A DNA stretch of 64,000 nt from Escherichia phage vB_ESM-pEJ01, in sequence record OP114734.1; one strand, 5' to 3'. Of this stretch, positions 2,508 to 48,777 are shown in pieces. The notes under the pieces are model-generated. The model was given only the letters and a program-made list of their open reading frames with translations. It was not told the origin of the DNA and made no database searches. The first letter of the stretch is position 1, and the number at the start of each line of letters is the position of its first letter. Made by a program: the position numbers and the translations under genes.

Positions 2508-3677
2508 TTACCAATCAATCTTATCAGCCGGAATCAGTTTCTTATAATTCCGTAGATAGTAAGTTTTCATTGAATCCAGAATACGGTCATAATCAAGACC
2601 ATCAAATGCAATCATCAGACACATGAAAATATATGCTTGTGCATCACCATGTTTACGTGATTCGATAGTCGCATTTGATGCATATGTCTTTCTGTCTTCT
2701 CCCGCGTGTGCGTTATAAAATTCTGTTGCTGTCGTGAAGGCATTGCGAAGAATAGACCTGAATGCTTCCTCGAATAACTCGATTCGTTCCAGTGCTTCTG
2801 GTTCGCCTTCATATGCAGCACGCAAATCATCGGTTTCGCTTTCTACGACATAGTAGATCAGGTTATTAGGAAACATCGATGTGTTTTTAATGTTATGCAC
2901 ACCAATATACCATTCACTCTTCACCTTGAACAGTTGACCGTCTTTAGTGCGTGCAACAATTCCTTCGATACCTTCTGCGGTCCGAACTTCATCAAGAATA
3001 TTGCTAAAACGCGCTGAATCAACCTGTAGCGCATTTACCAGATGAGGACGTAGGATTGCGTCAGCAAATAGCATTTGATGCGGTACGTACTCTCCTGTGA
3101 CGTTATGGCGTACATTCAGAAGTGTTAGCGACGGTTCAGAATATTCTACAACAATTCGGTTGCTGGGTGCTGTATATTCAAAGTTGAAAGTATAATCAGA
3201 CCCAATATCAGCAATCTTAGCGCGTAGATCCGCATACTTCTCTGAATACAGAAGACCGTTTGCTCTCTCTGCCTGGCTTGAGTACAAGGCCGCTTTAGAC
3301 TTCAACTGAACATAGCCGGTATCAATGTATGTGCTTACTAGACTACCGTCCATTTTGTCCATGACCATTTCCACATCTTCCGGCTTAAAGCGAGCGCGAT
3401 CATTCTCACCCAAATTAAAAAACTTCTCCATAGGACGAGATGCAATGCGGACCGGACGACCTTTATCGTCAATTTCAAACATGATCCCGCGACACTCTAA
3501 CGCATCTGGTTTATTCCACATTTCAGGTTTGCTCAAGTACAGATAGCTAAAAATGCGCATACGGGTTTGCATCGCCGTAATTTCATCTTTGTAGTAGAAC
3601 GTATCAGATCCGTCACATAGTGCCATCAGATTTTTGAACAATACTAAAACTTTTTTGTTGTTTTCTTTTGTTGACAT
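2508..3677 (-). CDS. rnlA: RNA ligase 1
   Basis: 389 aa track ORF; strong colinear match to remembered T4 gp63 (LFKNLMALC, ECRGIMFE, RIASRPMEKFFNL); the track 5' end overlaps denA by 65 nt so the true start is probably downstream. Confidence 0.85.
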   Translation of the reverse strand: MSTKENNKKVLVLFKNLMALCDGSDTFYYKDEITAMQTRMRIFSYLYLSKPEMWNKPDALECRGIMFEIDDKGRPVRIASRPMEKFFNLGENDRARFKPEDVEMVMDKMDGSLVSTYIDTGYVQLKSKAALYSSQAERANGLLYSEKYADLRAKIADIGSDYTFNFEYTAPSNRIVVEYSEPSLTLLNVRHNVTGEYVPHQMLFADAILRPHLVNALQVDSARFSNILDEVRTAEGIEGIVARTKDGQLFKVKSEWYIGVHNIKNTSMFPNNLIYYVVESETDDLRAAYEGEPEALERIELFEEAFRSILRNAFTTATEFYNAHAGEDRKTYASNATIESRKHGDAQAYIFMCLMIAFDGLDYDRILDSMKTYYLRNYKKLIPADKIDW

Positions 3678-4074
3678 AATTTGTGTTCCATTCTGGTTTA
3701 AATTTGGTGATCAAAACAGGTTCTTCGATATCGGCAGTGCTTATAATATCCTTACCCGTTGGATTCTCAATATATAACTCAAAGCACTGACGGTAATAGA
3801 ATGTTACTGTCTTACCTTCCTCTAGCGCCTTATGAATATTCTTACTCTTGCGAGTATCCGCCGTTGGTGTTTGTCTGTTAATGCTAGTCCGGTAATAATT
3901 GATCCGCTTTCTGAGATTGACAGTCTGTCCAATATATACCAGTTCATCATCAACCACAATAGCATAAAGAACATTTAAACGGTTCTTCTGAGGCGGTAGA
4001 ATCACATCACCATCTTTACACTCTAAACATGAATATTTAACGAATCCATAGTTTTCTATTAGCTCATTAATCAT
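3613..4074 (-). CDS. denA: endonuclease II (GIY-YIG)
   Basis: 153 aa; NVLYAIVVDDELVYIGQTVNLRKRINYYRT matches remembered T4 EndoII almost residue for residue; SD GAGGAAAGG upstream. Confidence 0.85.
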   Translation of the reverse strand: MINELIENYGFVKYSCLECKDGDVILPPQKNRLNVLYAIVVDDELVYIGQTVNLRKRINYYRTSINRQTPTADTRKSKNIHKALEEGKTVTFYYRQCFELYIENPTGKDIISTADIEEPVLITKFKPEWNTNYVNKRKQQKSFSIVQKSDGTM

Positions 4075-4090
4075 TATCCTTTCCTCACGT

Positions 4091-4117
4091 CACAACAAAG
4101 GCGGGATTTCTCCCGCC
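4091..4117 (-). terminator. rho-independent terminator after ORF 4125..4523
   Basis: hairpin GGCGGGAGAAATCCCGCC followed by T-rich tract on the minus strand. Confidence 0.55.
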
Positions 4118-4124
4118 CACCTTA

Positions 4125-4523
4125 TTAACTTTCCAGAATATCGCGAGCTTCGTTACGCTCCTTGATGATTTTCAGGACAAATTCCAGTTTTTCTTTGTTC
4201 AGCGTTCCATTTTCCATTGCTTCTTTGACGGTAAACACTCCGCCACCTTGCCCGTATACAGTGACAGTGATTTCACCTAACATCGTGGTATGAAAACCTC
4301 CAATTTTCGGTGATTCGAAAGAAACAATTACCTCGCGGACAGTATTACCGTCGTTGATTTCTGAGAGGGTAATGTCGTTTTTGTAGGCGGTTGCTTTAAC
4401 CATACGGATCAGCATAGTCTGATCTGGGGAGATGGTCATTTTGTCCATTGCATGTTGCAATGCAGCGTAACCGAAAACTTTAACGAAGTCCAGAACGTCT
4501 TTGCGAGTTTGAAATTTAATCAT
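4125..4523 (-). CDS. hypothetical protein
   Basis: 132 aa; own promoter (4557..4585) and SD AAGGAG 7 nt upstream; terminator downstream. Confidence 0.55.
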   Translation of the reverse strand: MIKFQTRKDVLDFVKVFGYAALQHAMDKMTISPDQTMLIRMVKATAYKNDITLSEINDGNTVREVIVSFESPKIGGFHTTMLGEITVTVYGQGGGVFTVKEAMENGTLNKEKLEFVLKIIKERNEARDILES

Positions 4524-4556
4524 CTTGATACTCCTTAGTTGTTTTGGTATGGGAGT

Positions 4557-4585
4557 ATCTTACTACTCCCGTGATATGCTGTCAA
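4557..4585 (-). promoter_or_regulatory. sigma70-like early promoter (TTGACA-17-TAAGAT) with -10 in hairpin loop
   Basis: minus-strand TTGACA at 4580-4585, 17 nt spacer, TAAGAT at 4557-4562; hairpin GGGAGTA/TACTCCC encloses the -10. Confidence 0.55.
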
Positions 4586-4593
4586 CTGCTTTT

Positions 4594-4743
4594 TTATGCA
4601 ACCGCAAACATCAACATTTGAACATTCTTGGCTGTCTGGCTTTCAAAGTTCTGACATTCTTTGATAATGTCCTCTACTTTCTCGCCGGAGATCTCCGCGT
4701 AAGTTTCGATTGCCATTTTCAGTACCGAGTCAAAGTTGTTCAT
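4594..4743 (-). CDS. small protein (49 aa), not in ORF track
   Basis: ATG at 4743 preceded by AAGGAG; own upstream promoter; translates MNNFDSVLKMAIETYAEISGEKVEDIIKECQNFESQTAKNVQMLMFAVA. Confidence 0.4.
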   Translation of the reverse strand: MNNFDSVLKMAIETYAEISGEKVEDIIKECQNFESQTAKNVQMLMFAVA

Positions 4744-4783
4744 TTGATTCTCCTTAAAGTGTATTTCGTTTCGATGGGGGGGT

Positions 4784-4812
4784 ATATTACTACCCCCGTT
4801 TCATGCTGTCAA
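4784..4812 (-). promoter_or_regulatory. sigma70-like early promoter (TTGACA-17-TAATAT) with GGGGG/CCCCC hairpin
   Basis: same cassette architecture as 4557..4585. Confidence 0.5.
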
Positions 4813-5031
4813 CTACTTTTTAATGACAAGTTCGAATTTTGCTACCTTGCGTCCTCGTTTATTGAAAGCAACCCACGGACGGTTTTCAATGTAGAACAAT
4901 TCTTCGCCAATAATGAATACTGGCTGATTGTAAAGGCGACCCATCAGGTCACGCTGGCGAATGGTAGTAGATTCGTATACTTCGCCTACTACAAAGTGCT
5001 TGCTGATAGAGTCGGTGCAAGTAAATTTCAT
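4813..5031 (-). CDS. small protein, member of a paralog pair (see 32267..32473)
   Basis: 72 aa; SD AAGGAG; C-terminal ...VAKFELVIKK resembles ...VAKFEIIE of ORF 32267..32473. Confidence 0.5.
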   Translation of the reverse strand: MKFTCTDSISKHFVVGEVYESTTIRQRDLMGRLYNQPVFIIGEELFYIENRPWVAFNKRGRKVAKFELVIKK

Positions 5032-5064
5032 TTTGATTCTCCTTTGTTTCGTTTCGATGTGGGT

Positions 5065-5093
5065 ATATTACTACCACCGTTATTCAGTGTCAA
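5065..5093 (-). promoter_or_regulatory. sigma70-like early promoter (TTGACA-17-TAATAT)
   Basis: third copy of the promoter cassette. Confidence 0.5.
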
Positions 5094-5100
5094 CTACTTT

Positions 5101-5319
5101 TTACTTGTTGTATTCATTCCACCATTGGGTTAGCTTATCAATTATTTTTGTGTTTCTATCCAACTTCTCCCACCGTTTTCTAGGGTTTATCAACCGGAAT
5201 AGGTAAGGTGTACTTGTTAAGTGAACTCGGTCAATGTAGTGATTGATGTACTGCTTTTCGATTCTAAGTTTCATCTTTTTACGATGAAAATATGCAATGA
5301 CTTGTTCTTCTGTTTCCAT
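5101..5319 (-). CDS. hypothetical small basic protein
   Basis: 72 aa; SD GGAGG; promoter 5344..5372 upstream. Confidence 0.5.
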   Translation of the reverse strand: METEEQVIAYFHRKKMKLRIEKQYINHYIDRVHLTSTPYLFRLINPRKRWEKLDRNTKIIDKLTQWWNEYNK

Positions 5320-5343
5320 ATGTTCCTCCGTTTCGATGTGCGT

Positions 5344-5372
5344 ATTATGCTATGGCAAGATCAGATTGTCAA
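5344..5372 (-). promoter_or_regulatory. sigma70-like early promoter (TTGACA-17-CATAAT)
   Basis: fourth copy of the promoter cassette. Confidence 0.5.
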
Positions 5373-5383
5373 CACCCAATAAC

Positions 5384-5409
5384 AAAAAAAGTCGCCACTA
5401 TGGGCGACT
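5384..5409 (-). terminator. rho-independent terminator after HAD-family gene
   Basis: hairpin GTCGCC-CATAGT-GGCGAC followed by TTTTTTT on the minus strand. Confidence 0.6.
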
Positions 5410-5420
5410 TTGAACAAACA

Positions 5421-5897
5421 TTAATCATGACCGTGATTTGCAATATCCGCTCGCGTCTTATCTTTGTGATTTCCTACGTCAAAGACACGATAACCATTTT
5501 CACGCAAAACTTTAATCACTTCTGGGTTATCCTCAAAGACTCCGACAACTTCATCTTTATCAAAGGATTTAATTACCTCTAATTTGATGTGATAGTCTTT
5601 ACGGGAATCGGTACGGCCTCTCATAAAGATTTTATCAAAACACACCCCGTTAGAAATTAACCAATCAATTGTTTCCATGTAAGCATGTGAACTTCGTCCG
5701 GTGAGGATGTAAATCAAATGCCCGTTGTCGGAAAGAGCATTAATAACACGAATTACATCGTAAATGGGGGAATCTCCCCCACATGCCTTGTTATATTCGA
5801 TCCATGACTCGACTTTATCAAGATTTTCGGTTGGCATCTTTGCTAGTCGATGTGTTGGATCTGTGATCGTAAAATCTAAATCGACAAAATATATCAT
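5421..5897 (-). CDS. HAD-family phosphatase (putative nucleotidase)
   Basis: 158 aa; N-terminal DLDFTITD (DxDxT) HAD motif; sits just after nrdB. Confidence 0.55.
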   Translation of the reverse strand: MIYFVDLDFTITDPTHRLAKMPTENLDKVESWIEYNKACGGDSPIYDVIRVINALSDNGHLIYILTGRSSHAYMETIDWLISNGVCFDKIFMRGRTDSRKDYHIKLEVIKSFDKDEVVGVFEDNPEVIKVLRENGYRVFDVGNHKDKTRADIANHGHD

Positions 5898-7081
5898 AGA
5901 TATTTCCCGAATCGGTTGTAGTCATCGTCTGTTAAATCGGTATTAACCTGAGATACCAGATACATAATCTCTACTTCCTGCGCTGCATTCTGTACTTCGT
6001 CAGAGTTCAACCATTTACGCATCCACGGTAACGGATGACGACGAACACTAAACTGGCTTTTCAGTCCGGCAGCACGCATACGGGAATCTGCCAGGTATTC
6101 TACATAGGTTTTCAGAATTTCCGGCGACAGGTTAGGAATTGCCCCCATTGCGAATAAGTGATCTACCCATTCTTTTTCTTGCTCGACAACATCCAGAAAG
6201 ATTTTCGTTGCTTCGCCTTCAAGTTCTTCCGCAATCTGTTTCCACTCATCACCATCAGCCCCCGTTTGCCATTGACGAATAATGTATTGTGTGCCTTTTA
6301 AGTGAAGTTGTTCATCACGCGCAATAAATTTCATGATCTTCGCGTTACCTTCCAGTAAACCACGTTCGGCAAAGCTGAAAGTACATGCAAAGGACACATA
6401 AAAACGTATTGCTTCCAGTGCATTTACGCAGTGTGCACACAGATAAATCGAAGCCATCAGATCTCGTTTTGTATCTTCAAAAAATCTTCTTGCATCATCT
6501 AATTCTGTCTGATCGTCTCGTTCTTCCCAATAGTGGTGGAGAACTTCTTCTTCCCAATAGCGGAGATCTTCTTTTGCATTCTCATACTTACGAATCCAAT
6601 AGAGAACATCATCATAATATTTCCCGATAGATTCCGCTCGCTTCATGATAGCAGGGTTATCGATGATCTGGTCGAACTCACTAGCCGGATCAATGAAACA
6701 GTTACGCATAATGTGTGTATAGCTTCGGCTATGAATCGTTTCGCTGAATGTCCATGTTTGCAACCATGTATCGAGAGTTGGATCAGATACAATTGGACCA
6801 AATGCTGCGGACGGTGCGCGACCTTGAATAGAATCAAGTAATGTCTGATACTTCAAGTTTTCGGTAAAGAAACGCTTTTCAACGTCACCCATATTAAGAT
6901 ATTGAATGCGGTCGGTTGCAAGTGAAATCTCTTCTGGACGCCAGAAAAATGACAATTGCTTTTCGATCAGTTCTTCAAATACTTGATGACGCTGAATATC
7001 ATAGCGAGCGATACCCAACCCACTACCCAGAAACATTGGTTCGTTCATAATATCAACATGTTCGCGGTTAAATACGCTCAT
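5894..7081 (-). CDS. nrdB: ribonucleotide reductase beta subunit
   Basis: 395 aa; di-iron RNR small-subunit features; downstream of nrdA as in T4; SD GTGAGGTG. Confidence 0.9.
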   Translation of the reverse strand: MSVFNREHVDIMNEPMFLGSGLGIARYDIQRHQVFEELIEKQLSFFWRPEEISLATDRIQYLNMGDVEKRFFTENLKYQTLLDSIQGRAPSAAFGPIVSDPTLDTWLQTWTFSETIHSRSYTHIMRNCFIDPASEFDQIIDNPAIMKRAESIGKYYDDVLYWIRKYENAKEDLRYWEEEVLHHYWEERDDQTELDDARRFFEDTKRDLMASIYLCAHCVNALEAIRFYVSFACTFSFAERGLLEGNAKIMKFIARDEQLHLKGTQYIIRQWQTGADGDEWKQIAEELEGEATKIFLDVVEQEKEWVDHLFAMGAIPNLSPEILKTYVEYLADSRMRAAGLKSQFSVRRHPLPWMRKWLNSDEVQNAAQEVEIMYLVSQVNTDLTDDDYNRFGKYL

Positions 7082-7096
7082 TAATTCACCTCACTA

Positions 7097-7264
7097 TCAC
7101 TTTTTAACACAAAAGAACTTAGTATTTCTGTTTATTTCGCTATCCTGCTGCAATTCCTGCACAGCTTCAAAACAATTTTGATATGATGAAAACTCTACGC
7201 TGGTAACAGTTCCTTTATTATATACGCCTACGCTAACGGAAAGCAATAACCATAATGTAGCCAT
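7097..7264 (-). CDS. small protein with hydrophobic N-terminus (55 aa), not in ORF track
   Basis: ATG at 7264 overlaps stop of upstream paralog (TAATG); MATLWLLLSVSVGVY...; paralog of 7264..7437. Confidence 0.45.
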   Translation of the reverse strand: MATLWLLLSVSVGVYNKGTVTSVEFSSYQNCFEAVQELQQDSEINRNTKFFCVKK

Positions 7265-7437
7265 TAGTTCACCTTTTGTTTTTCAACACAGTACAGATTC
7301 ATAAAGCGTTTATTGTCTTCACGGATAATCTCGCGAGCTTTAACGCAATCCTGCTTTGTTGCAAACTCAATGCTTGACATATTTCCGTAATTATACATTG
7401 AATTGCTTATTGCAATCAATAACCATACAGTAGCCAT
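7264..7437 (-). CDS. small protein with hydrophobic N-terminus (57 aa), not in ORF track
   Basis: MATVWLLIAISNS...; shares SVEF...C...CV.K pattern with 7097..7264; TAATG coupling on both sides. Confidence 0.45.
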   Translation of the reverse strand: MATVWLLIAISNSMYNYGNMSSIEFATKQDCVKAREIIREDNKRFMNLYCVEKQKVN

Positions 7438-7634
7438 TATCCGACAACCTCAAAACATTTATCATCAGGAAGAATCGCCCATTCTACACCGTATTCATCC
7501 TCGACGTAGTAGCAAGTCCCATCATGTCGAGCATCATATTCATCACCAACAACAAAGCTATCAGCTAGTTCAAAATCTACAGCAACACATTTAATTTGGT
7601 CATAATAAAATCCTCACTTGTTTTTGATGGTTGT

Positions 7635-7663
7635 ATTATAGCGGGGATTTCTCCCCGCGTCAA
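7635..7663 (-). promoter_or_regulatory. sigma70-like promoter (TTGACG-17-TATAAT) with hairpin in spacer
   Basis: spacer is the hairpin GCGGGGAGAAATCCCCGC; immediately downstream of nrdA stop. Confidence 0.5.
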
Positions 7664-7671
7664 CACTTATT

Positions 7672-9915
7672 TTACAGCTTGCAAGATGAGCACTCGCTAG
7701 CGTCTTCCGTACCATCAGCACCATCACGCACGTTAGCGTAATACAGGGTTTTCAGACCGTAATATTGAGCAAACAACATATCATCTAACACATCAGCAAT
7801 ATCGACTTTACCAGTCTTATAAGTGCTTGGATCGTATGATGTATTGGAACTAATCGCCTGATCCACAAACTTCTGCATGATCGCTGCCAGTGTGAGATAA
7901 GGCTTGTTACCTTTCTTGATCAGTGTCCAAAGCAGGTCAATAACATCAGCATTATTCTCTACGTTCGGAATAACCTGATTAAATTGCCCTTCTTTCGATC
8001 CTTTAACCGATACAATCCCGCGAGGCGGTTCAATACCGTTTGTGCTGTTAGATACCTGAGAAGACGACTCACAAGGCATCAGCGCCGACAGTGTACTGTT
8101 ACGAATGCCATATTTTTTCAGGTCTTCGCGCAGTTCTTCCCAATCCATCTCATACACCGGATCAACCAGTTCATCTACTGTCTTTTTGTACCAGTCGATA
8201 GGAAGTTCACCGCGACCATAGCGTGTTTCGTGCATCAGTTCGCAAGCACCCTTCTCTTTAGCCAGTCGCACACTAGCCTTAATCAGAGCATATTGCAAGC
8301 GTTCAAACGTTTTATGCGTAAACTCGTTAGCGTCTTCATATGTGAAGAAATTATCTGCTAGATATGATGCAAAGTTAGTAACACCAATACCCAGAGAGCG
8401 ACGTTTTTTGGCTGTCAGAGCTTGTTCTACAGGATAATCCTGATAATCTAACAGGTTGTCAAGTGCACGCACCATAACCATAGCAATGCGTTCTACTTCT
8501 TCCATATTTTCGATATCGAAATTACCTAAAACATATGCTGCCAAAGTACATAGGCTGATCTCTGAATCATCACGCCCCATCGGTTTTGTTGGCAGCGCAA
8601 TTTCACAACACAGGTTAGATTGTTTAATCGGTGCTACATTACGAATAAACGCCCCGTGATTGTTCATGTTGTCTGTGAACGTTGGGTAGATTCGACCTGT
8701 GTTAAAACGTTCAATTGCCACCGCTAAAAACAGGTCTTCGGCTTTAACACGAGTTTTACGAACACTCGGATCTTTTTCCAGTTTTTCGTAAAGCTGGCGG
8801 AAACCTTCCTCATCTCGGAAGTATAGATCCCACAATAAGCCACCCGCAACATCTGGACTAAACAGAGTAATGTAATCCCGTTTAAGGAATCGCTCTACCA
8901 TCAGGTTATTAATCTGTACGCCGTAATCAAGATGACGAATGCGGTTATCTTCCACCCCCTTATTGTTCTTTAACACAATCAGACTTTCAAACTCTAAATG
9001 CCACATTGGGTAATAGAGAGTAGCTGCCCCGCCACGAATACCGCCTTGTGAGCATGACTTAACGGCAGTCTGAAAATGTTTCCAGAATGGGATAACGCCA
9101 GTATGACGAACTTCACCATGCCCGATCTTAGATCCTTCCGCGCGAATCATACCAGCATTGATACCGATACCAGCACGCTTGCTAATATACTTGATGATTG
9201 CATTTGCTGTTTCGTTGATGCCCTGCAATGAGTCATCACTTTCAATCACCACACACGAACTAAATTGGCGTGTTTGGGTACGCACACCTGCCATAATCGG
9301 AGTAGGCAGAGAGATTTGCTTATTCGCAACAGCATTATAAAAATCAATCACATGTTCAAGTCGATTTTCTGTCTCTTCTTGATGCAAGCACATACCGATC
9401 AGCATATACGCAAATTGCGGTGTTTCGATGATTTTCTTAGTGCTGCGATCCTGAACAAGATATTTCTCTTTTAACTGCATCGCACCAGCATAGGTCATTT
9501 TAAAATCAAGTTTATGGTCGATGAATTTCTCCAGATATTCCACTTCTTCACGGGAATATTTTTGCAGAATTTCGCGATCATATTTTCCGGTTGCAATATT
9601 ACGCTCAATATGGCTATAAAAATCAATAGGTTGGAATTGACCGTATACTGATTTACGAAGCGCGAACATTGCAAGGTTACTTGCTACATATTGATAATCA
9701 GGTGTTTCTACAGTAATGTTATCTGCGGCGACCTTAATCAATACTTTCTGGATATCATTGGTAGACATACCTTCTGTCAGAAGTGGTTCAACCATATCAA
9801 ACAATTCATATGGATCAACGTTATGACCTTCGGCTGCCGCTTCCAGAATTTTCATTACTTTTTCTTTTTCAAACGGAACAGTCAGACCGGAAGACTTAAC
9901 AACATTTTTAATCAT
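7672..9915 (-). CDS. nrdA: ribonucleotide reductase alpha subunit
   Basis: 747 aa; class I RNR large subunit with ATP-cone N-terminus; T4 NrdA-like length. Confidence 0.92.
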   Translation of the reverse strand: MIKNVVKSSGLTVPFEKEKVMKILEAAAEGHNVDPYELFDMVEPLLTEGMSTNDIQKVLIKVAADNITVETPDYQYVASNLAMFALRKSVYGQFQPIDFYSHIERNIATGKYDREILQKYSREEVEYLEKFIDHKLDFKMTYAGAMQLKEKYLVQDRSTKKIIETPQFAYMLIGMCLHQEETENRLEHVIDFYNAVANKQISLPTPIMAGVRTQTRQFSSCVVIESDDSLQGINETANAIIKYISKRAGIGINAGMIRAEGSKIGHGEVRHTGVIPFWKHFQTAVKSCSQGGIRGGAATLYYPMWHLEFESLIVLKNNKGVEDNRIRHLDYGVQINNLMVERFLKRDYITLFSPDVAGGLLWDLYFRDEEGFRQLYEKLEKDPSVRKTRVKAEDLFLAVAIERFNTGRIYPTFTDNMNNHGAFIRNVAPIKQSNLCCEIALPTKPMGRDDSEISLCTLAAYVLGNFDIENMEEVERIAMVMVRALDNLLDYQDYPVEQALTAKKRRSLGIGVTNFASYLADNFFTYEDANEFTHKTFERLQYALIKASVRLAKEKGACELMHETRYGRGELPIDWYKKTVDELVDPVYEMDWEELREDLKKYGIRNSTLSALMPCESSSQVSNSTNGIEPPRGIVSVKGSKEGQFNQVIPNVENNADVIDLLWTLIKKGNKPYLTLAAIMQKFVDQAISSNTSYDPSTYKTGKVDIADVLDDMLFAQYYGLKTLYYANVRDGADGTEDASECSSCKL

Positions 9916-30654: not shown

Positions 30655-31413
30655 TTACTTGCAAACGTATTGATCTACATCAATTGCTCCACCGAATGTA
30701 GGATGACGTTTTTCAAATCGAATAGTTCCGTCGTTTGGTTCGAAAACGGAGTATTCATATAGATCTTTCTTGCCAACATTCTTATAAAACCCGCCTTTAG
30801 TCATAACGGTTTCTTGTACGTTTGCTTTGTGTACGTTGTATTCGTCAATGTATACAAAATCAACCATCTTCCCATTTTTAATGGTTACTTTAAGATCTCC
30901 TGGTTGATTTCCATATTTGGCATACAGTGGCGCTTCTTTAATTTTTGTGGAAATTCCATCTTTCATACTCCACTCATAACGAACGGTGCATTGATAGGTA
31001 AAAGTTTCGACCTTCGGTTCTTCCACCACTTTTTCTTCCTGTTTCGGTTGTTCTTCTTCAACCTTCGCAGAAGTCTCTGAATCGCTTTCTGACGCGGTTT
31101 CTTCTTTAGGTAATACATTCATCAAGTTTTGGATTTGAGCGTTGTATACAGCCTCCAGTGGCTGAATCTGCCCGATATTGATCATTGTATCACGAACAGT
31201 TTTATTCCAGTTGCGTTGCTCTTGTTTAAGAGACGGATCAATCTTAACAGCCTTAACATACACCTCATGAAGTTTCGAATCCAGTGCTGAGATTGACTCA
31301 TTAGCACAAATAAACTTCTCTGATTTGGTAGTGGCTTTAGCGCAATCAAAGGACGCAGCATTAGCACCGAAAGCAGTAGCGGAAATAACGATAGCAGCGA
31401 TAATGTTTTTCAT
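30655..31413 (-). CDS. secreted protein with LprI-like (DUF1311, lysozyme-inhibitor-like) N-terminal domain
   Basis: 252 aa; signal peptide MKNIIAAIVISATAFGANA; FDCAKATTKSEKFICANESISALDSKL...QRNW motif; SD GAGGAA and promoter 31448..31476. Confidence 0.5.
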   Translation of the reverse strand: MKNIIAAIVISATAFGANAASFDCAKATTKSEKFICANESISALDSKLHEVYVKAVKIDPSLKQEQRNWNKTVRDTMINIGQIQPLEAVYNAQIQNLMNVLPKEETASESDSETSAKVEEEQPKQEEKVVEEPKVETFTYQCTVRYEWSMKDGISTKIKEAPLYAKYGNQPGDLKVTIKNGKMVDFVYIDEYNVHKANVQETVMTKGGFYKNVGKKDLYEYSVFEPNDGTIRFEKRHPTFGGAIDVDQYVCK

Positions 31414-31447
31414 AATATATTCCTCAATGTTTTGTCTTGATGGGAGT

Positions 31448-31476
31448 ATCTTACTACTCCCTTAATCCGGTGTCAA
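31448..31476 (-). promoter_or_regulatory. sigma70-like promoter (TTGACA-17-TAAGAT) with -10 in hairpin loop
   Basis: hairpin GGGAGTATCTTACTACTCCC identical to the one at 4551..4570. Confidence 0.55.
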
Positions 31477-31483
31477 CTACTTT

Positions 31484-31696
31484 TTAATTTTTACCCGCTC
31501 GTGCATTAATACGCATTTTCTGCATAGCCATAATCTGGTTTACTGCTTCTTCTTTGCGTTTTTGCGTGATAACGTGACCAGATTCCGCAAACTCTCCCGC
31601 AACTTCTTCTACGATCTCGCGAACTTGAGAACGTCCAAAGATGCGGTTTCCTTCGTAGCTCATAAATTCAGTCACTACTTGCTCAATAGATTTCAT
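31484..31696 (-). CDS. hypothetical small protein
   Basis: 70 aa; promoter 31731..31759 upstream. Confidence 0.4.
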   Translation of the reverse strand: MKSIEQVVTEFMSYEGNRIFGRSQVREIVEEVAGEFAESGHVITQKRKEEAVNQIMAMQKMRINARAGKN

Positions 31697-31730
31697 GTGA
31701 TTCTCCTTCTTTCGTTTCGGTGTGGGAGTA

Positions 31731-31759
31731 TGTTAATACTCCCATTTCTTTACGTCAAC
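31731..31759 (-). promoter_or_regulatory. sigma70-like promoter (TTGACG-17-TAACAT) with hairpin
   Basis: hairpin GGGAGTATGTTAATACTCCC around the -10. Confidence 0.5.
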
Positions 31760-31761
31760 AA

Positions 31762-31923
31762 CTATTTTAAATTATTTTCGACCTTCATCCATTCCGCGTA
31801 TTCTTGCGCGGCTACTTTCGGATTTAGTCCGTCTTCGTACATTGCTTCAAGTAATTCTTCGTCGGTGGGCTTATACCCTAGATAAGCCTCCACCTGATTT
31901 TTCCAAATTTTATACCAGTTCAT
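31762..31923 (-). CDS. hypothetical small protein
   Basis: 53 aa from MNWYKIW; ATG at 31923 follows the stop of the upstream gene; track ORF 5' extension overlaps that gene. Confidence 0.35.
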   Translation of the reverse strand: MNWYKIWKNQVEAYLGYKPTDEELLEAMYEDGLNPKVAAQEYAEWMKVENNLK

Positions 31924-31927
31924 ATTA

Positions 31928-32200
31928 TCACCAGTCAAGAGCGCGTGTCTCTGCGTCTTCCCATGCTTGATCCATAACAGCCTTGAAAACATATTCTAAA
32001 GTATCATCTTTAGAGAATCCGAAGACCTTAGACGGAATATCTTCAATTGCTACTCCCGCGACTTCTGCATTACGCGCTTGGCAATAATGCAACTCTAAGT
32101 TATCGAGATAGCGACCGCCTAATTTCTCCATATCATCCCAGCATTTCCAGTAACCTACTTTATTTGCAATCGCTAACACCTTGCTGTTTTCGTTGTTCAT
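31928..32200 (-). CDS. hypothetical protein
   Basis: 90 aa from MNNENSKV; SD AAGGAG; promoter 32232..32260 upstream. Confidence 0.45.
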   Translation of the reverse strand: MNNENSKVLAIANKVGYWKCWDDMEKLGGRYLDNLELHYCQARNAEVAGVAIEDIPSKVFGFSKDDTLEYVFKAVMDQAWEDAETRALDW

Positions 32201-32231
32201 CTTTGATTCTCCTTTTGTTTGGTATGGGAGT

Positions 32232-32260
32232 ATGTTACTACTCCCTTGTTCTGGTGTCAA
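32232..32260 (-). promoter_or_regulatory. sigma70-like promoter (TTGACA-17-TAACAT) with hairpin
   Basis: hairpin GGGAGTATGTTACTACTCCC around the -10. Confidence 0.5.
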
Positions 32261-32266
32261 TAGACT

Positions 32267-32473
32267 TTATTCGATTATTTCAAATTTTGCTACCGGATCA
32301 CCGTTTCGTTTGGTTGCAGTAAGTTGTTGTTTGTCAAAGTAAAACCAAATATAGTCACCATGAACTACATCAAATGTGTTTCCGCTATTGTCCGTGAATA
32401 AATCAACATCATAATCACACCCAACACTAAAGCTATAATTGATGTGATCGGTTTCAATGCAACGTACTTTCAT
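32267..32473 (-). CDS. small protein, paralog of 4813..5031
   Basis: 68 aa from MKVRCIETDH; C-terminal ...GDPVAKFEIIE similar to ...GRKVAKFELVIKK; promoter 32505..32533. Confidence 0.45.
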   Translation of the reverse strand: MKVRCIETDHINYSFSVGCDYDVDLFTDNSGNTFDVVHGDYIWFYFDKQQLTATKRNGDPVAKFEIIE

Positions 32474-32504
32474 TTTTGAATCTCCTTTTTGTTTCACTGT
32501 GTGT

Positions 32505-32533
32505 ATTATGCAATGCTGGATTATGGAAGTCAA
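32505..32533 (-). promoter_or_regulatory. sigma70-like promoter (TTGACT-17-CATAAT)
   Basis: canonical spacing upstream of ORF 32267..32473. Confidence 0.45.
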
Positions 32534-32586
32534 ACAACTTTTTAAAATAAAAAAAAGCCGACCACAAGGATCGGCTTAATAATCAG

Positions 32587-32982
32587 TTACTTACTAAATT
32601 TCTTTTTGGCTTCGTCTACTGCATGAGATGCTAGTACCGCTGCCGCATGTGCACTTTTATCTGTGTTGCAGAGAACACCCAGATAAACATCACGCCAAAG
32701 TTTAATCATCTCATAGATCATATCAATATCATTTTCTTGTTTGTTGGCGATGCTATTCGTTGTTATCTGGTAAGGTAACGGCTTTATCTGTACTGGTTCC
32801 GCCATCGGGCTAATCGGTTTCGGATCAGTCATAATAGGTGCTGTTGTGGGTGGTGTTTTCCATACGTCATTATTCCACGGTTTAATCGTTGTATCGTAAA
32901 GTTTATAAGGATTTTTGTCTGGATCAACCATCCATGCATGATGGATACCTAAACCATTTGAAGTGATGCGTCGTTCATTCAT
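32587..32982 (-). CDS. hypothetical protein
   Basis: 131 aa track ORF. Confidence 0.4.
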   Translation of the reverse strand: MNERRITSNGLGIHHAWMVDPDKNPYKLYDTTIKPWNNDVWKTPPTTAPIMTDPKPISPMAEPVQIKPLPYQITTNSIANKQENDIDMIYEMIKLWRDVYLGVLCNTDKSAHAAAVLASHAVDEAKKKFSK

Positions 32983-48564: not shown

Positions 48565-48573
48565 AATAACCTC

Positions 48574-48777
48574 TTATAGCTCAAATTTCATGAAAGTTCC
48601 CACACTTTCATTTTCATTCTCTCCGTTTTCATCTAAGCCAAATTTGTAGACACTACCATCTGGCGATGTGTAAGAGAATACACGAAAACGGCCTACCGGA
48701 TCAAGTTCTGTAAATTCATATTCTTTTCCGGCTTCAAAAAGTGAATATGTGCTTTTAAGACATTTCATCGTGATCAT
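48574..48777 (-). CDS. hypothetical small protein
   Basis: 67 aa track ORF. Confidence 0.4.
   Translation of the reverse strand: MITMKCLKSTYSLFEAGKEYEFTELDPVGRFRVFSYTSPDGSVYKFGLDENGENENESVGTFMKFEL

Follow-up and report, generated by a model that had tools for sequence, protein, structure and literature searches.

The closest described system to the locus reported here is the promoter-early stem-loop (PeSL), which was defined in phages RB49 and phi1 (Arbiol, Comeau, Kutateladze, Adamia, Krisch 2010, PMC2839356) as a composite element made of an AT-rich region with an upstream stop codon, sigma70 -35 and -10 boxes, a stem-loop that is often polyG/polyC, a Shine-Dalgarno (SD) sequence and a start codon. 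According to that study, the stem-loop sits at one of five positions, most commonly between the two boxes or over the -10 box, and RB49 carries ~51 PeSLs, mostly upstream of orphan genes (ORFans) and associated with indels. Its authors proposed that recombination between copies mediates modular shuffling of orphan genes, and they noted that less than 50 bp of homology suffices for T4-type recombination. Promoter strength, termination and mini-circles were shown for individual elements (193/192, 206/205, 211/210, ORF192 and ORF210); in vivo, promoter/terminator data were given for PeSL206/205 and the PeSL211/210 stem-loop only, and encapsidated PeSL mini-circles were reported for ORF192 and ORF210. 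Comeau et al. (2014, PMC4122927) later applied the idea to further T4-like phages; the phenomenon has been known since 2010 and is well supported. Here, we describe an array of four promoter-plus-small-gene cassettes in a 64,000-nt stretch of Escherichia phage vB_ESM-pEJ01 (OP114734.1; hereafter, the window). We are confident that its units are PeSL cassettes, that they make up a small hyperplastic region in a T4-like phage of the RB49 type (Krischvirus), and that the repeats serve as recombination substrates.

Some other arrangements of exchangeable genes invite comparison. As summarized in PMC2839356 from Repoila et al. (1994), T-even phages have early-promoter and hairpin repeats on either side of their internal-protein (IP) loci, whose genes are small, highly variable and non-essential; these repeats appear to keep shuffling within one locus, much as in the present array. 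In the same account, these elements are analogues and not homologues of PeSLs, having T4-type early promoters and weaker, AT-rich stems. Morons, as PMC2839356 reports them from Hendrix et al. (2000), likewise lie between conserved genes as single accessory genes, each equipped with a promoter and a terminator, but in this account no repeats occur among their regulatory sequences, to which no role in mobility is attributed. In the present array, by contrast, the regulatory repeat would be the recombination substrate, and all units are co-oriented with their neighbors. Integrons also form arrays of exchangeable single-gene cassettes served by a promoter, and the circular intermediates reported for PeSLs add to the likeness; however, PeSL arrays have neither integrase nor attC/attI sites, and each PeSL cassette brings its own promoter.

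The four promoter/leader elements and their repeat family

Between 2.5 and 7.1 kb, the window is coding exclusively on the minus strand. The array follows a HAD/PNKP-like phosphatase gene and precedes denA, with a canonical terminator at each end (Table 1), and comprises four minus-strand units, each with a sigma70-type promoter, a leader, a GGAG SD and a small open reading frame (ORF). In the order of transcription, the units encode products of 72, 72, 49 and 132 aa, which correspond to RB49 ORF228c to ORF225c and to phi1p225-228; we refer to the genes as ORF228 to ORF225 and to the elements that precede them as P1 to P4. A sequence-only reading of the window had described four near-identical promoter cassettes lying within 4525-5420. 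The four units stand, but their near-identity does not: P2, P3 and P4 are homologous, being mutually 61-73% identical over 75 nt in a repeat search, and P1 belongs to another subtype. The interval also proved too narrow, as the body of the 132-aa gene (4125-4523) lies outside it.

All four promoters score 10-11 of 12 against the sigma70 consensus with a constant 17-nt spacing, and an SD (GGAGG or AGGAG) stands 5-8 nt ahead of each of the four ATGs. The stop codons of ORF228, ORF227 and ORF226 fall within TAAAAAGTAG, TAAAAAGTAG and TAAAAAAGCAG, respectively, directly preceding a -35 box, and P1 follows a T-run. In the GEC-3S record, these four promoters and both terminators had been marked independently by its annotators. 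Each of P2-P4 has a G/C-rich inverted repeat (7-6-7) across its -10 box; directly beyond it stands CATCGAAACGAAA in P2 and P3, and CATACCAAAAC in P4. The hairpin is a perfect 7 bp in P4 (GGGAGTA/TACTCCC, 4570-4551; z-score -3.92, 0 of 200 shuffles as stable) and in P3 (GGGGGTA/TACCCCC, 4797-4778; centroid -12.9 kcal/mol, z-score -2.15). The P2 arms (GGTGGTA/TACCCAC, within 5078-5059) are degraded in the window genome and fold no better than shuffles (z-score +0.69), and they form a perfect, intact hairpin in G2494 and SSG23 and one with a single G-T pair in RB49. The -10 box of P1 has no hairpin over it, the stem-loop of this element being the upstream terminator (5388-5411), and what P1 has in common with P2-P4 is limited to TTGACA, the 17-nt spacing, the CATCGAAAC box and the GGAG SD. 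A scan of 3900-5600 for known RNA families found none.

The repeat is far from a chance resemblance. A pattern of 26 specified bases spanning the -35 box, hairpin and -10 box matched six times at ≤3 mismatches, compared to 0 expected (0 of 100 shuffles had any match), and leave-one-out nhmmer profiles recovered P2 at E = 1.5e-11, P3 at E = 2.5e-12 and P4 at E = 9.8e-8; P1 was not recovered by the P2-P4 profile. In the 5-kb region 3000-8000, a generic sigma70 scan showed no enrichment (14 promoters found vs. 13.8 expected), and the signal of the array resides in the repeat and not in the promoter hexamers alone. With a profile built from all four elements, another seven copies were detected at E < 0.01, every one of them on the minus strand, which brings the total to 11 related copies in 64 kb. 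The copies cluster at 4.5-5.4 kb and 31.4-32.5 kb, with four of the seven further copies in the latter cluster, including the unit at 32475-32545 that P1 resembles. When 19 unique in-register copies were compared, the fourth pair of the stem was A-T in 7, G-C in 10 and G-T in 2.

The second cluster forms an array of its own (31380-32620, minus strand) with the same grammar. Its three P4-type PeSLs drive genes of ~89 aa (ATG at 32200), 70 aa and 252 aa, and share with P4 the hairpin GGGAGTA/TACTCCC; a small ORF (ATG at 31922) after the ~89-aa gene is without a PeSL of its own.

Set beside the PeSLs of RB49 and phi1, these elements come from the same genus at 99% DNA identity and have the same composite anatomy, the same position upstream of ORFans and the same association with indels and replacements. 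They show an AT-rich 5' part with an upstream stop, sigma70 boxes, and an SD and start codon at the 3' end; the stem-loop lies over the -10 box in P3 and P4, upstream in P1, and in P2 is found in other genomes. The element is repeated, and the genes downstream are genus-restricted and have no Pfam family. Nothing essential differs from the published PeSLs, although the hairpins here lack a U-tract.

Variation at the array among Krischvirus genomes

The window belongs to Krischvirus and, in this region, shares 99% identity with RB49, Sf20 and Delraymugoa. A sensitive BLAST search with 4075-5420 yielded 58 Krischvirus records, and we compared the interval from the HAD stop codon to the denA start in 16 records and in three metagenomic or IMG/VR loci, the only usable loci that scans of IMG/VR and metagenomes with the HAD protein provided. 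The array differed from that of the window in 18 of the 58 records, with 40 being colinear. By BLAST, nine of the non-colinear records were ~220 bp shorter, two were ~285 bp shorter, three were longer or truncated, and in the remaining four the match was restricted to the stretch of the interval that lies upstream of the ORF226 cassette (query 658/704-1346). The 49-aa gene ORF226 was absent from 13 of the 58 records, with two different junctions, and ORF227 (4813-5031) was absent from two, again with two junctions. In three records, ORF228 (5101-5319) was replaced by two unrelated 55-aa ORFs (55a and 55b), and among 50,697 phage records the 55a gene occurred only in these three genomes, ELT4, 011D4 and E26.

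In the compared intervals, the arrays fell into five types. Type A, 228>227>226>225, was found in the window, RB49, Phi1 and GEC-3S. The order 228>227>225 occurred as type B1 in JSE, UPWr_E1, SSG23, G2494, ECD7, Brandy, JK32, L018 and L021, all three metagenomic or IMG/VR loci being of this JSE type, and as type B2 in phiS. Type C, 228>226>225, was found in ELT3 and AV108, and type D, 55a>55b>227>226>225, in ELT4, 011D4 and E26.

In these 16 records and three loci, no junction falls outside the repeated promoter/leader element, and in several cases the element at the junction is a chimera of two neighboring repeats. In B1, the P3 promoter and hairpin are joined to the P4 SD, while in phiS the sequence passes from the P3 flank into the spacer, hairpin and leader of P4 at a crossover in the shared AGTTGACAGCAT. 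The ELT3 junction consists of the P2 upstream flank and a P2-type spacer followed by a P3-type hairpin and leader; that of AV108 differs, being a P2/P3/P2/P3 patchwork that runs into the SD. Both endpoints of the type D replacement lie at the CATCGAAAC box, and the incoming cassette brings a new hairpin allele. Individual repeats, too, prove to be mosaics when genomes are compared: in P3, the spacer reads 'ctgaataac', the P2 type, in Phi1, GEC-3S, E26 and SSG23, and 'gcatgaaac' in the window and RB49. Such mosaics indicate apparent conversion between repeats.

Taken together, these alignments place at least four or five apparently separate cassette events at the array. Crossovers are seen at the -35/spacer region, the hairpin, the +1 box and the SD, whereas PMC2839356 suggested mainly the AT-rich part; since they are spread over the repeat, general homologous recombination fits better than a single-site mechanism. 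The sequence-only reading had proposed a cassette-shuffling hotspot, a view that invariance among relatives together with products of known structural function would have contradicted. The proposal is supported: the interval varies, all sequenced junctions fall within repeats, and no product matches a structural or other known family.

A separate rearrangement was seen upstream of the ORF225 homologue in AV108 (L016), where a rearrangement that duplicated part of the hairpin (gcagttggggagtagtaagatacttagtaagatactccc) cost the P4 promoter its -35 box, which suggests that the hairpin itself was the site of slippage or recombination.

The small genes, a probable distant paralog and the flanks

The pN/pS ratios (non-synonymous to synonymous polymorphism) of ORF225-228 range from 0.05 to 0.27 across the sequenced genomes (Table 1), as would be expected of real genes under purifying selection. 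We detected no similarity among the four products (best E > 0.07), which fall into four different PHROGs, all of unknown function; searches of Pfam and PADLOC gave no match to any of them. In a search of 5.8 billion proteins, relatives were found only at ≥91% identity for ORF225 and ≥94% for ORF227. The four products are genus-restricted, with ORF227 found solely in 56 of the 58 Krischvirus records. An AlphaFold2 model of ORF227 was confident (mean predicted local distance difference test score, pLDDT, 92.4) and showed an all-beta small barrel, with no meaningful match in an hmmsearch of PDB sequences; the barrel may be of a rare six-stranded form, and the small beta-barrel protein Gp54 of phage Bas11 (PDB 9AXB; PMC11578894) was considered as a possible relative; the ORF225 model was too poor for use (pLDDT 55). 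Our best guess is that these proteins have accessory roles in host takeover or defense interaction that are dispensable in some hosts.

The product of 4813-5031 had been proposed to have a paralog in an accessory island of the window. This is likely, if the relationship is a distant one: ORF227 (4816-5031) aligned over its full length with the 68-aa product of 32270-32473 at 31% identity (pairwise BLASTP, E = 8e-6; tblastn against the whole window, E = 0.005), and ORF227 cross-matched phrog_9122 at E = 0.0025. The two are probably distant paralogs. A joint profile searched against 1.8 billion representatives found just three more small proteins (65-68 aa, MKxxC...G..VAxFE), one of them from an unrelated contig rich in ORFans that shows no PeSL-like promoters, and spurious repeat proteins. 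P0013 matched weakly, and to the Krischvirus paralog only. P0014 (67 aa), a distant family member, is encoded at 4001-4204 of a Logan SRR19631088 contig (L017), which in its 13 kb carries same-strand ORFans of 36-155 aa without Pfam matches and is presumably the accessory region of another phage; no Krischvirus-type PeSL was found upstream of P0014. Within the window, a 64-aa ORF at 48573-48767 (minus strand; MKCLKSTYSLFEAGKEYEF...GTFMKFEL) is a weak third candidate for the family (E = 0.024 by hmmsearch); no PeSL goes with this ORF, which overlaps the upstream stop codon.

Both terminators of the array are also annotated in the GEC-3S and G2494 records. The one before denA folds at -18.8 kcal/mol (z-score -4.78), and the 86-nt stretch 5330-5415, which contains the upstream terminator, folds at -20.6 kcal/mol, not exceptional vs. 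shuffles (z-score -1.43). The stop codon of nrdB and the start of the HAD/PNKP-like gene overlap (ATGA, 5894-5897), denA shares 65 nt with the start of rnlA (3613-3677), and the denA annotated in ELT3 is truncated to 255 nt. A TTG-started, 202-aa plus-strand ORF (4525-5133) runs antisense through three cassettes and their promoters; it was disregarded as spurious, being taken for a mechanical artifact of ORF listing. SSG23 (L010, 5326-6000) and phiS (L011, 5311-5958) carry a homing-endonuclease gene directly beside nrdB, which is absent from the other relatives annotated that far (E26, 011D4 and UPWr_E1). This site is another indel site adjoining the array.

Table 1. Coordinates of the array, its flanks and related elements in the window.
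Feature	Position	Strand	Details
nrdB	5894-7081	-	Upstream of the HAD/PNKP-like gene
HAD/PNKP-phosphatase-like gene	5421-5897	-	158 aa; PF25109
Intrinsic terminator	5388-5411	-	9-bp stem then T-run; terminator scan; after HAD/PNKP-like gene, in AT-rich stretch just upstream of P1
PeSL-1 (P1)	5317-5386	-	-35 TTGACA 5372-5367; 17-nt spacing; -10 CATAAT 5349-5344; CATCGAAAC box; SD GGAGG; ATG at 5319
ORF228	5101-5319	-	72-aa orphan; RB49 ORF228c; phrog_18672; pN/pS 0.27
PeSL-2 (P2)	5029-5107	-	-35 5093-5088; -10 TAATAT 5070-5065; TTGACA-17-TAATAT 5093-5065; CATCGAAACGAAA box; SD AGGAG; ATG at 5031
ORF227	4813-5031	-	72-aa orphan; RB49 ORF227c; phrog_14957; pN/pS 0.05
PeSL-3 (P3)	4741-4826	-	-35 4812-4807; -10 TAATAT 4789-4784; CATCGAAACGAAA box; SD AGGAG; ATG at 4743
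ORF226	4594-4743	-	49-aa orphan; RB49 ORF226c; phrog_21179; pN/pS 0.22
PeSL-4 (P4)	4521-4599	-	-35 4585-4580; -10 TAAGAT 4562-4557; TTGACA-17-TAAGAT 4585-4557; SD AGGAG; ATG at 4523
ORF225	4125-4523	-	132-aa orphan; RB49 ORF225c; phrog_10173; pN/pS 0.08; in all sequenced relatives
Canonical intrinsic terminator	4099-4118	-	Before denA; terminator scan
denA	3613-4074	-	Downstream flank of the array
P4-type PeSL	31422-31487	-	nhmmer E = 3.4e-10
P4-type PeSL	31698-31769	-	nhmmer E = 2.5e-10
P4-type PeSL	32203-32263	-	nhmmer E = 1.4e-6
P1-like unit	32475-32545	-	Own upstream terminator; drives the 68-aa paralog (32270-32473); nhmmer E = 1.9e-3

Mechanism, competing explanations and significance

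We propose that each unit would act as an autonomous early transcription unit whose consensus sigma70 promoter is read by unmodified host RNA polymerase; the units are called early because their promoters match the sigma70 consensus. Since transcription is predicted to start at the A just after the 3' arm, at the usual distance from the -10 box, the hairpin of P2-P4 would end just before +1 and be missing from the cassette's own mRNA, so that only read-through RNA from upstream would contain it. At the 3' end of such a read-through transcript from the upstream cassette, it could serve as an attenuator or a 3'-end stabilizer. The two canonical terminators would insulate the whole array from nrdB and the HAD gene upstream and from denA downstream. 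The 70-85-bp regulatory repeats between unrelated genes would offer the phage recombination machinery patches of homology, and exchange between repeats could delete, insert, replace or convert expression-ready cassettes while leaving neighboring genes undisturbed. In this scheme, we infer that the units are expressed early, where their transcription begins, what the hairpin does and which recombination pathway is at work.

Several observations weigh against this account. With 40 of the 58 records colinear, turnover at the array is moderate. Of the JSE-type junction, 9 nt (ctaacttac) have no counterpart in either window repeat, and the junction may be an older allele instead of a simple crossover product. 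The -10 hairpins have no following U-tract and were not called as terminators in the terminator scan, so efficient termination at them is putative; the hairpin may be an attenuator, a 3'-end stabilizer or a DNA-level structure. In the window genome, moreover, the P2 hairpin is degraded and P1 has none over its -10 box. Finally, the text of PMC2839356 does not name ORF225-228, and the activity experiments in it concern other PeSLs; that these four elements are on the authors' PeSL list is our inference.

Could the array instead be a set of ordinary stacked early promoters, which resemble each other through selection for a strong sigma70 promoter and ribosome-binding site, with indels that are illegitimate or morons and repeats that play no causal part? 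The invariant columns are indeed mainly functional (TTGACA, -10 positions and SD), P1 has little else in common with P2-P4, and generic promoters are not in excess of chance in the region. However, the similarity runs on through the spacer, hairpin and leader, none of which a promoter needs, and the location of all sequenced junctions in repeats, several of them clean chimeras of neighbors, together with the mosaic repeats that indicate conversion, makes this explanation quite improbable. We are similarly very doubtful that a dimeric phage regulator uses the inverted repeat at the -10 box as a DNA operator to shut off the early promoters, in which case the repeat would not be an RNA or single-stranded DNA hairpin. 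A perfect 7-6-7 palindrome is centered on the -10 box in P3, P4 and the three copies at 31.4-32.3 kb, as an operator would have it, but its arms change on both sides with pairing kept (GGGAGTA/TACTCCC vs. GGGGGTA/TACCCCC), other PeSLs have unrelated stems at other positions, and the palindrome is missing from P1 and, in the window genome, from P2. An array produced by tandem duplication of one promoter-plus-gene unit, with the genes diverging afterward, would agree with the head-to-tail spacing of 227 and 281 bp and with the presence of two 72-aa ORFs; it is extremely unlikely and was rejected, as the four proteins are unrelated, each in its own PHROG, and only the regulatory parts repeat.

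A further explanation takes the hairpin and/or the CATCGAAAC box as the target of a dedicated structure- or site-specific recombinase that moves cassettes in an integron-like manner. The replacement in ELT4, 011D4 and E26, with both endpoints exactly at the CATCGAAAC box beside the hairpin, speaks in its favor, as does the stem being kept through a two-sided change, and PMC2839356 raised the possibility and reported mini-circles. Nevertheless, the junctions lie at no single site but at at least four sub-sites (-35/spacer, hairpin arm, leader box and SD), no integrase or recombinase family was recognized among the proteins of the interval or its annotated immediate neighbors, and T4-type recombination, according to PMC2839356, makes do with less than 50 bp of homology; we regard such a recombinase as highly unlikely. 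It is a long shot, too, that the hairpin and the CATCGAAAC box at the predicted +1 form a recognition structure for dedicated structure-specific recombination, which would amount to integron-like exchange in a strictly lytic phage. If it were true, units would run exactly from transcription start to transcription start, and the ELT4, 011D4 and E26 replacement has that shape.

With PeSL cassettes recombining at their repeats as the preferred explanation, the locus is a clean natural example of accessory-gene turnover in large lytic phages, in which expression-ready orphan genes are exchanged at regulatory repeats and the conserved nrdB-denA neighborhood stays undamaged. The principle published in 2010 rested on a comparison of two genomes, and what is added here is a 58-genome view of one 1.4-kb locus. 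The additions are incremental: four to five independent events, crossovers at several sub-sites of the repeat, evidence of conversion, and a replacement cassette unique among the 50,697 phage records. For annotation, the repeats explain the unusual density of consensus promoters, and they mark ORF225-228 as probably dispensable accessory genes that would be worth screening for host-takeover or defense-related activity.

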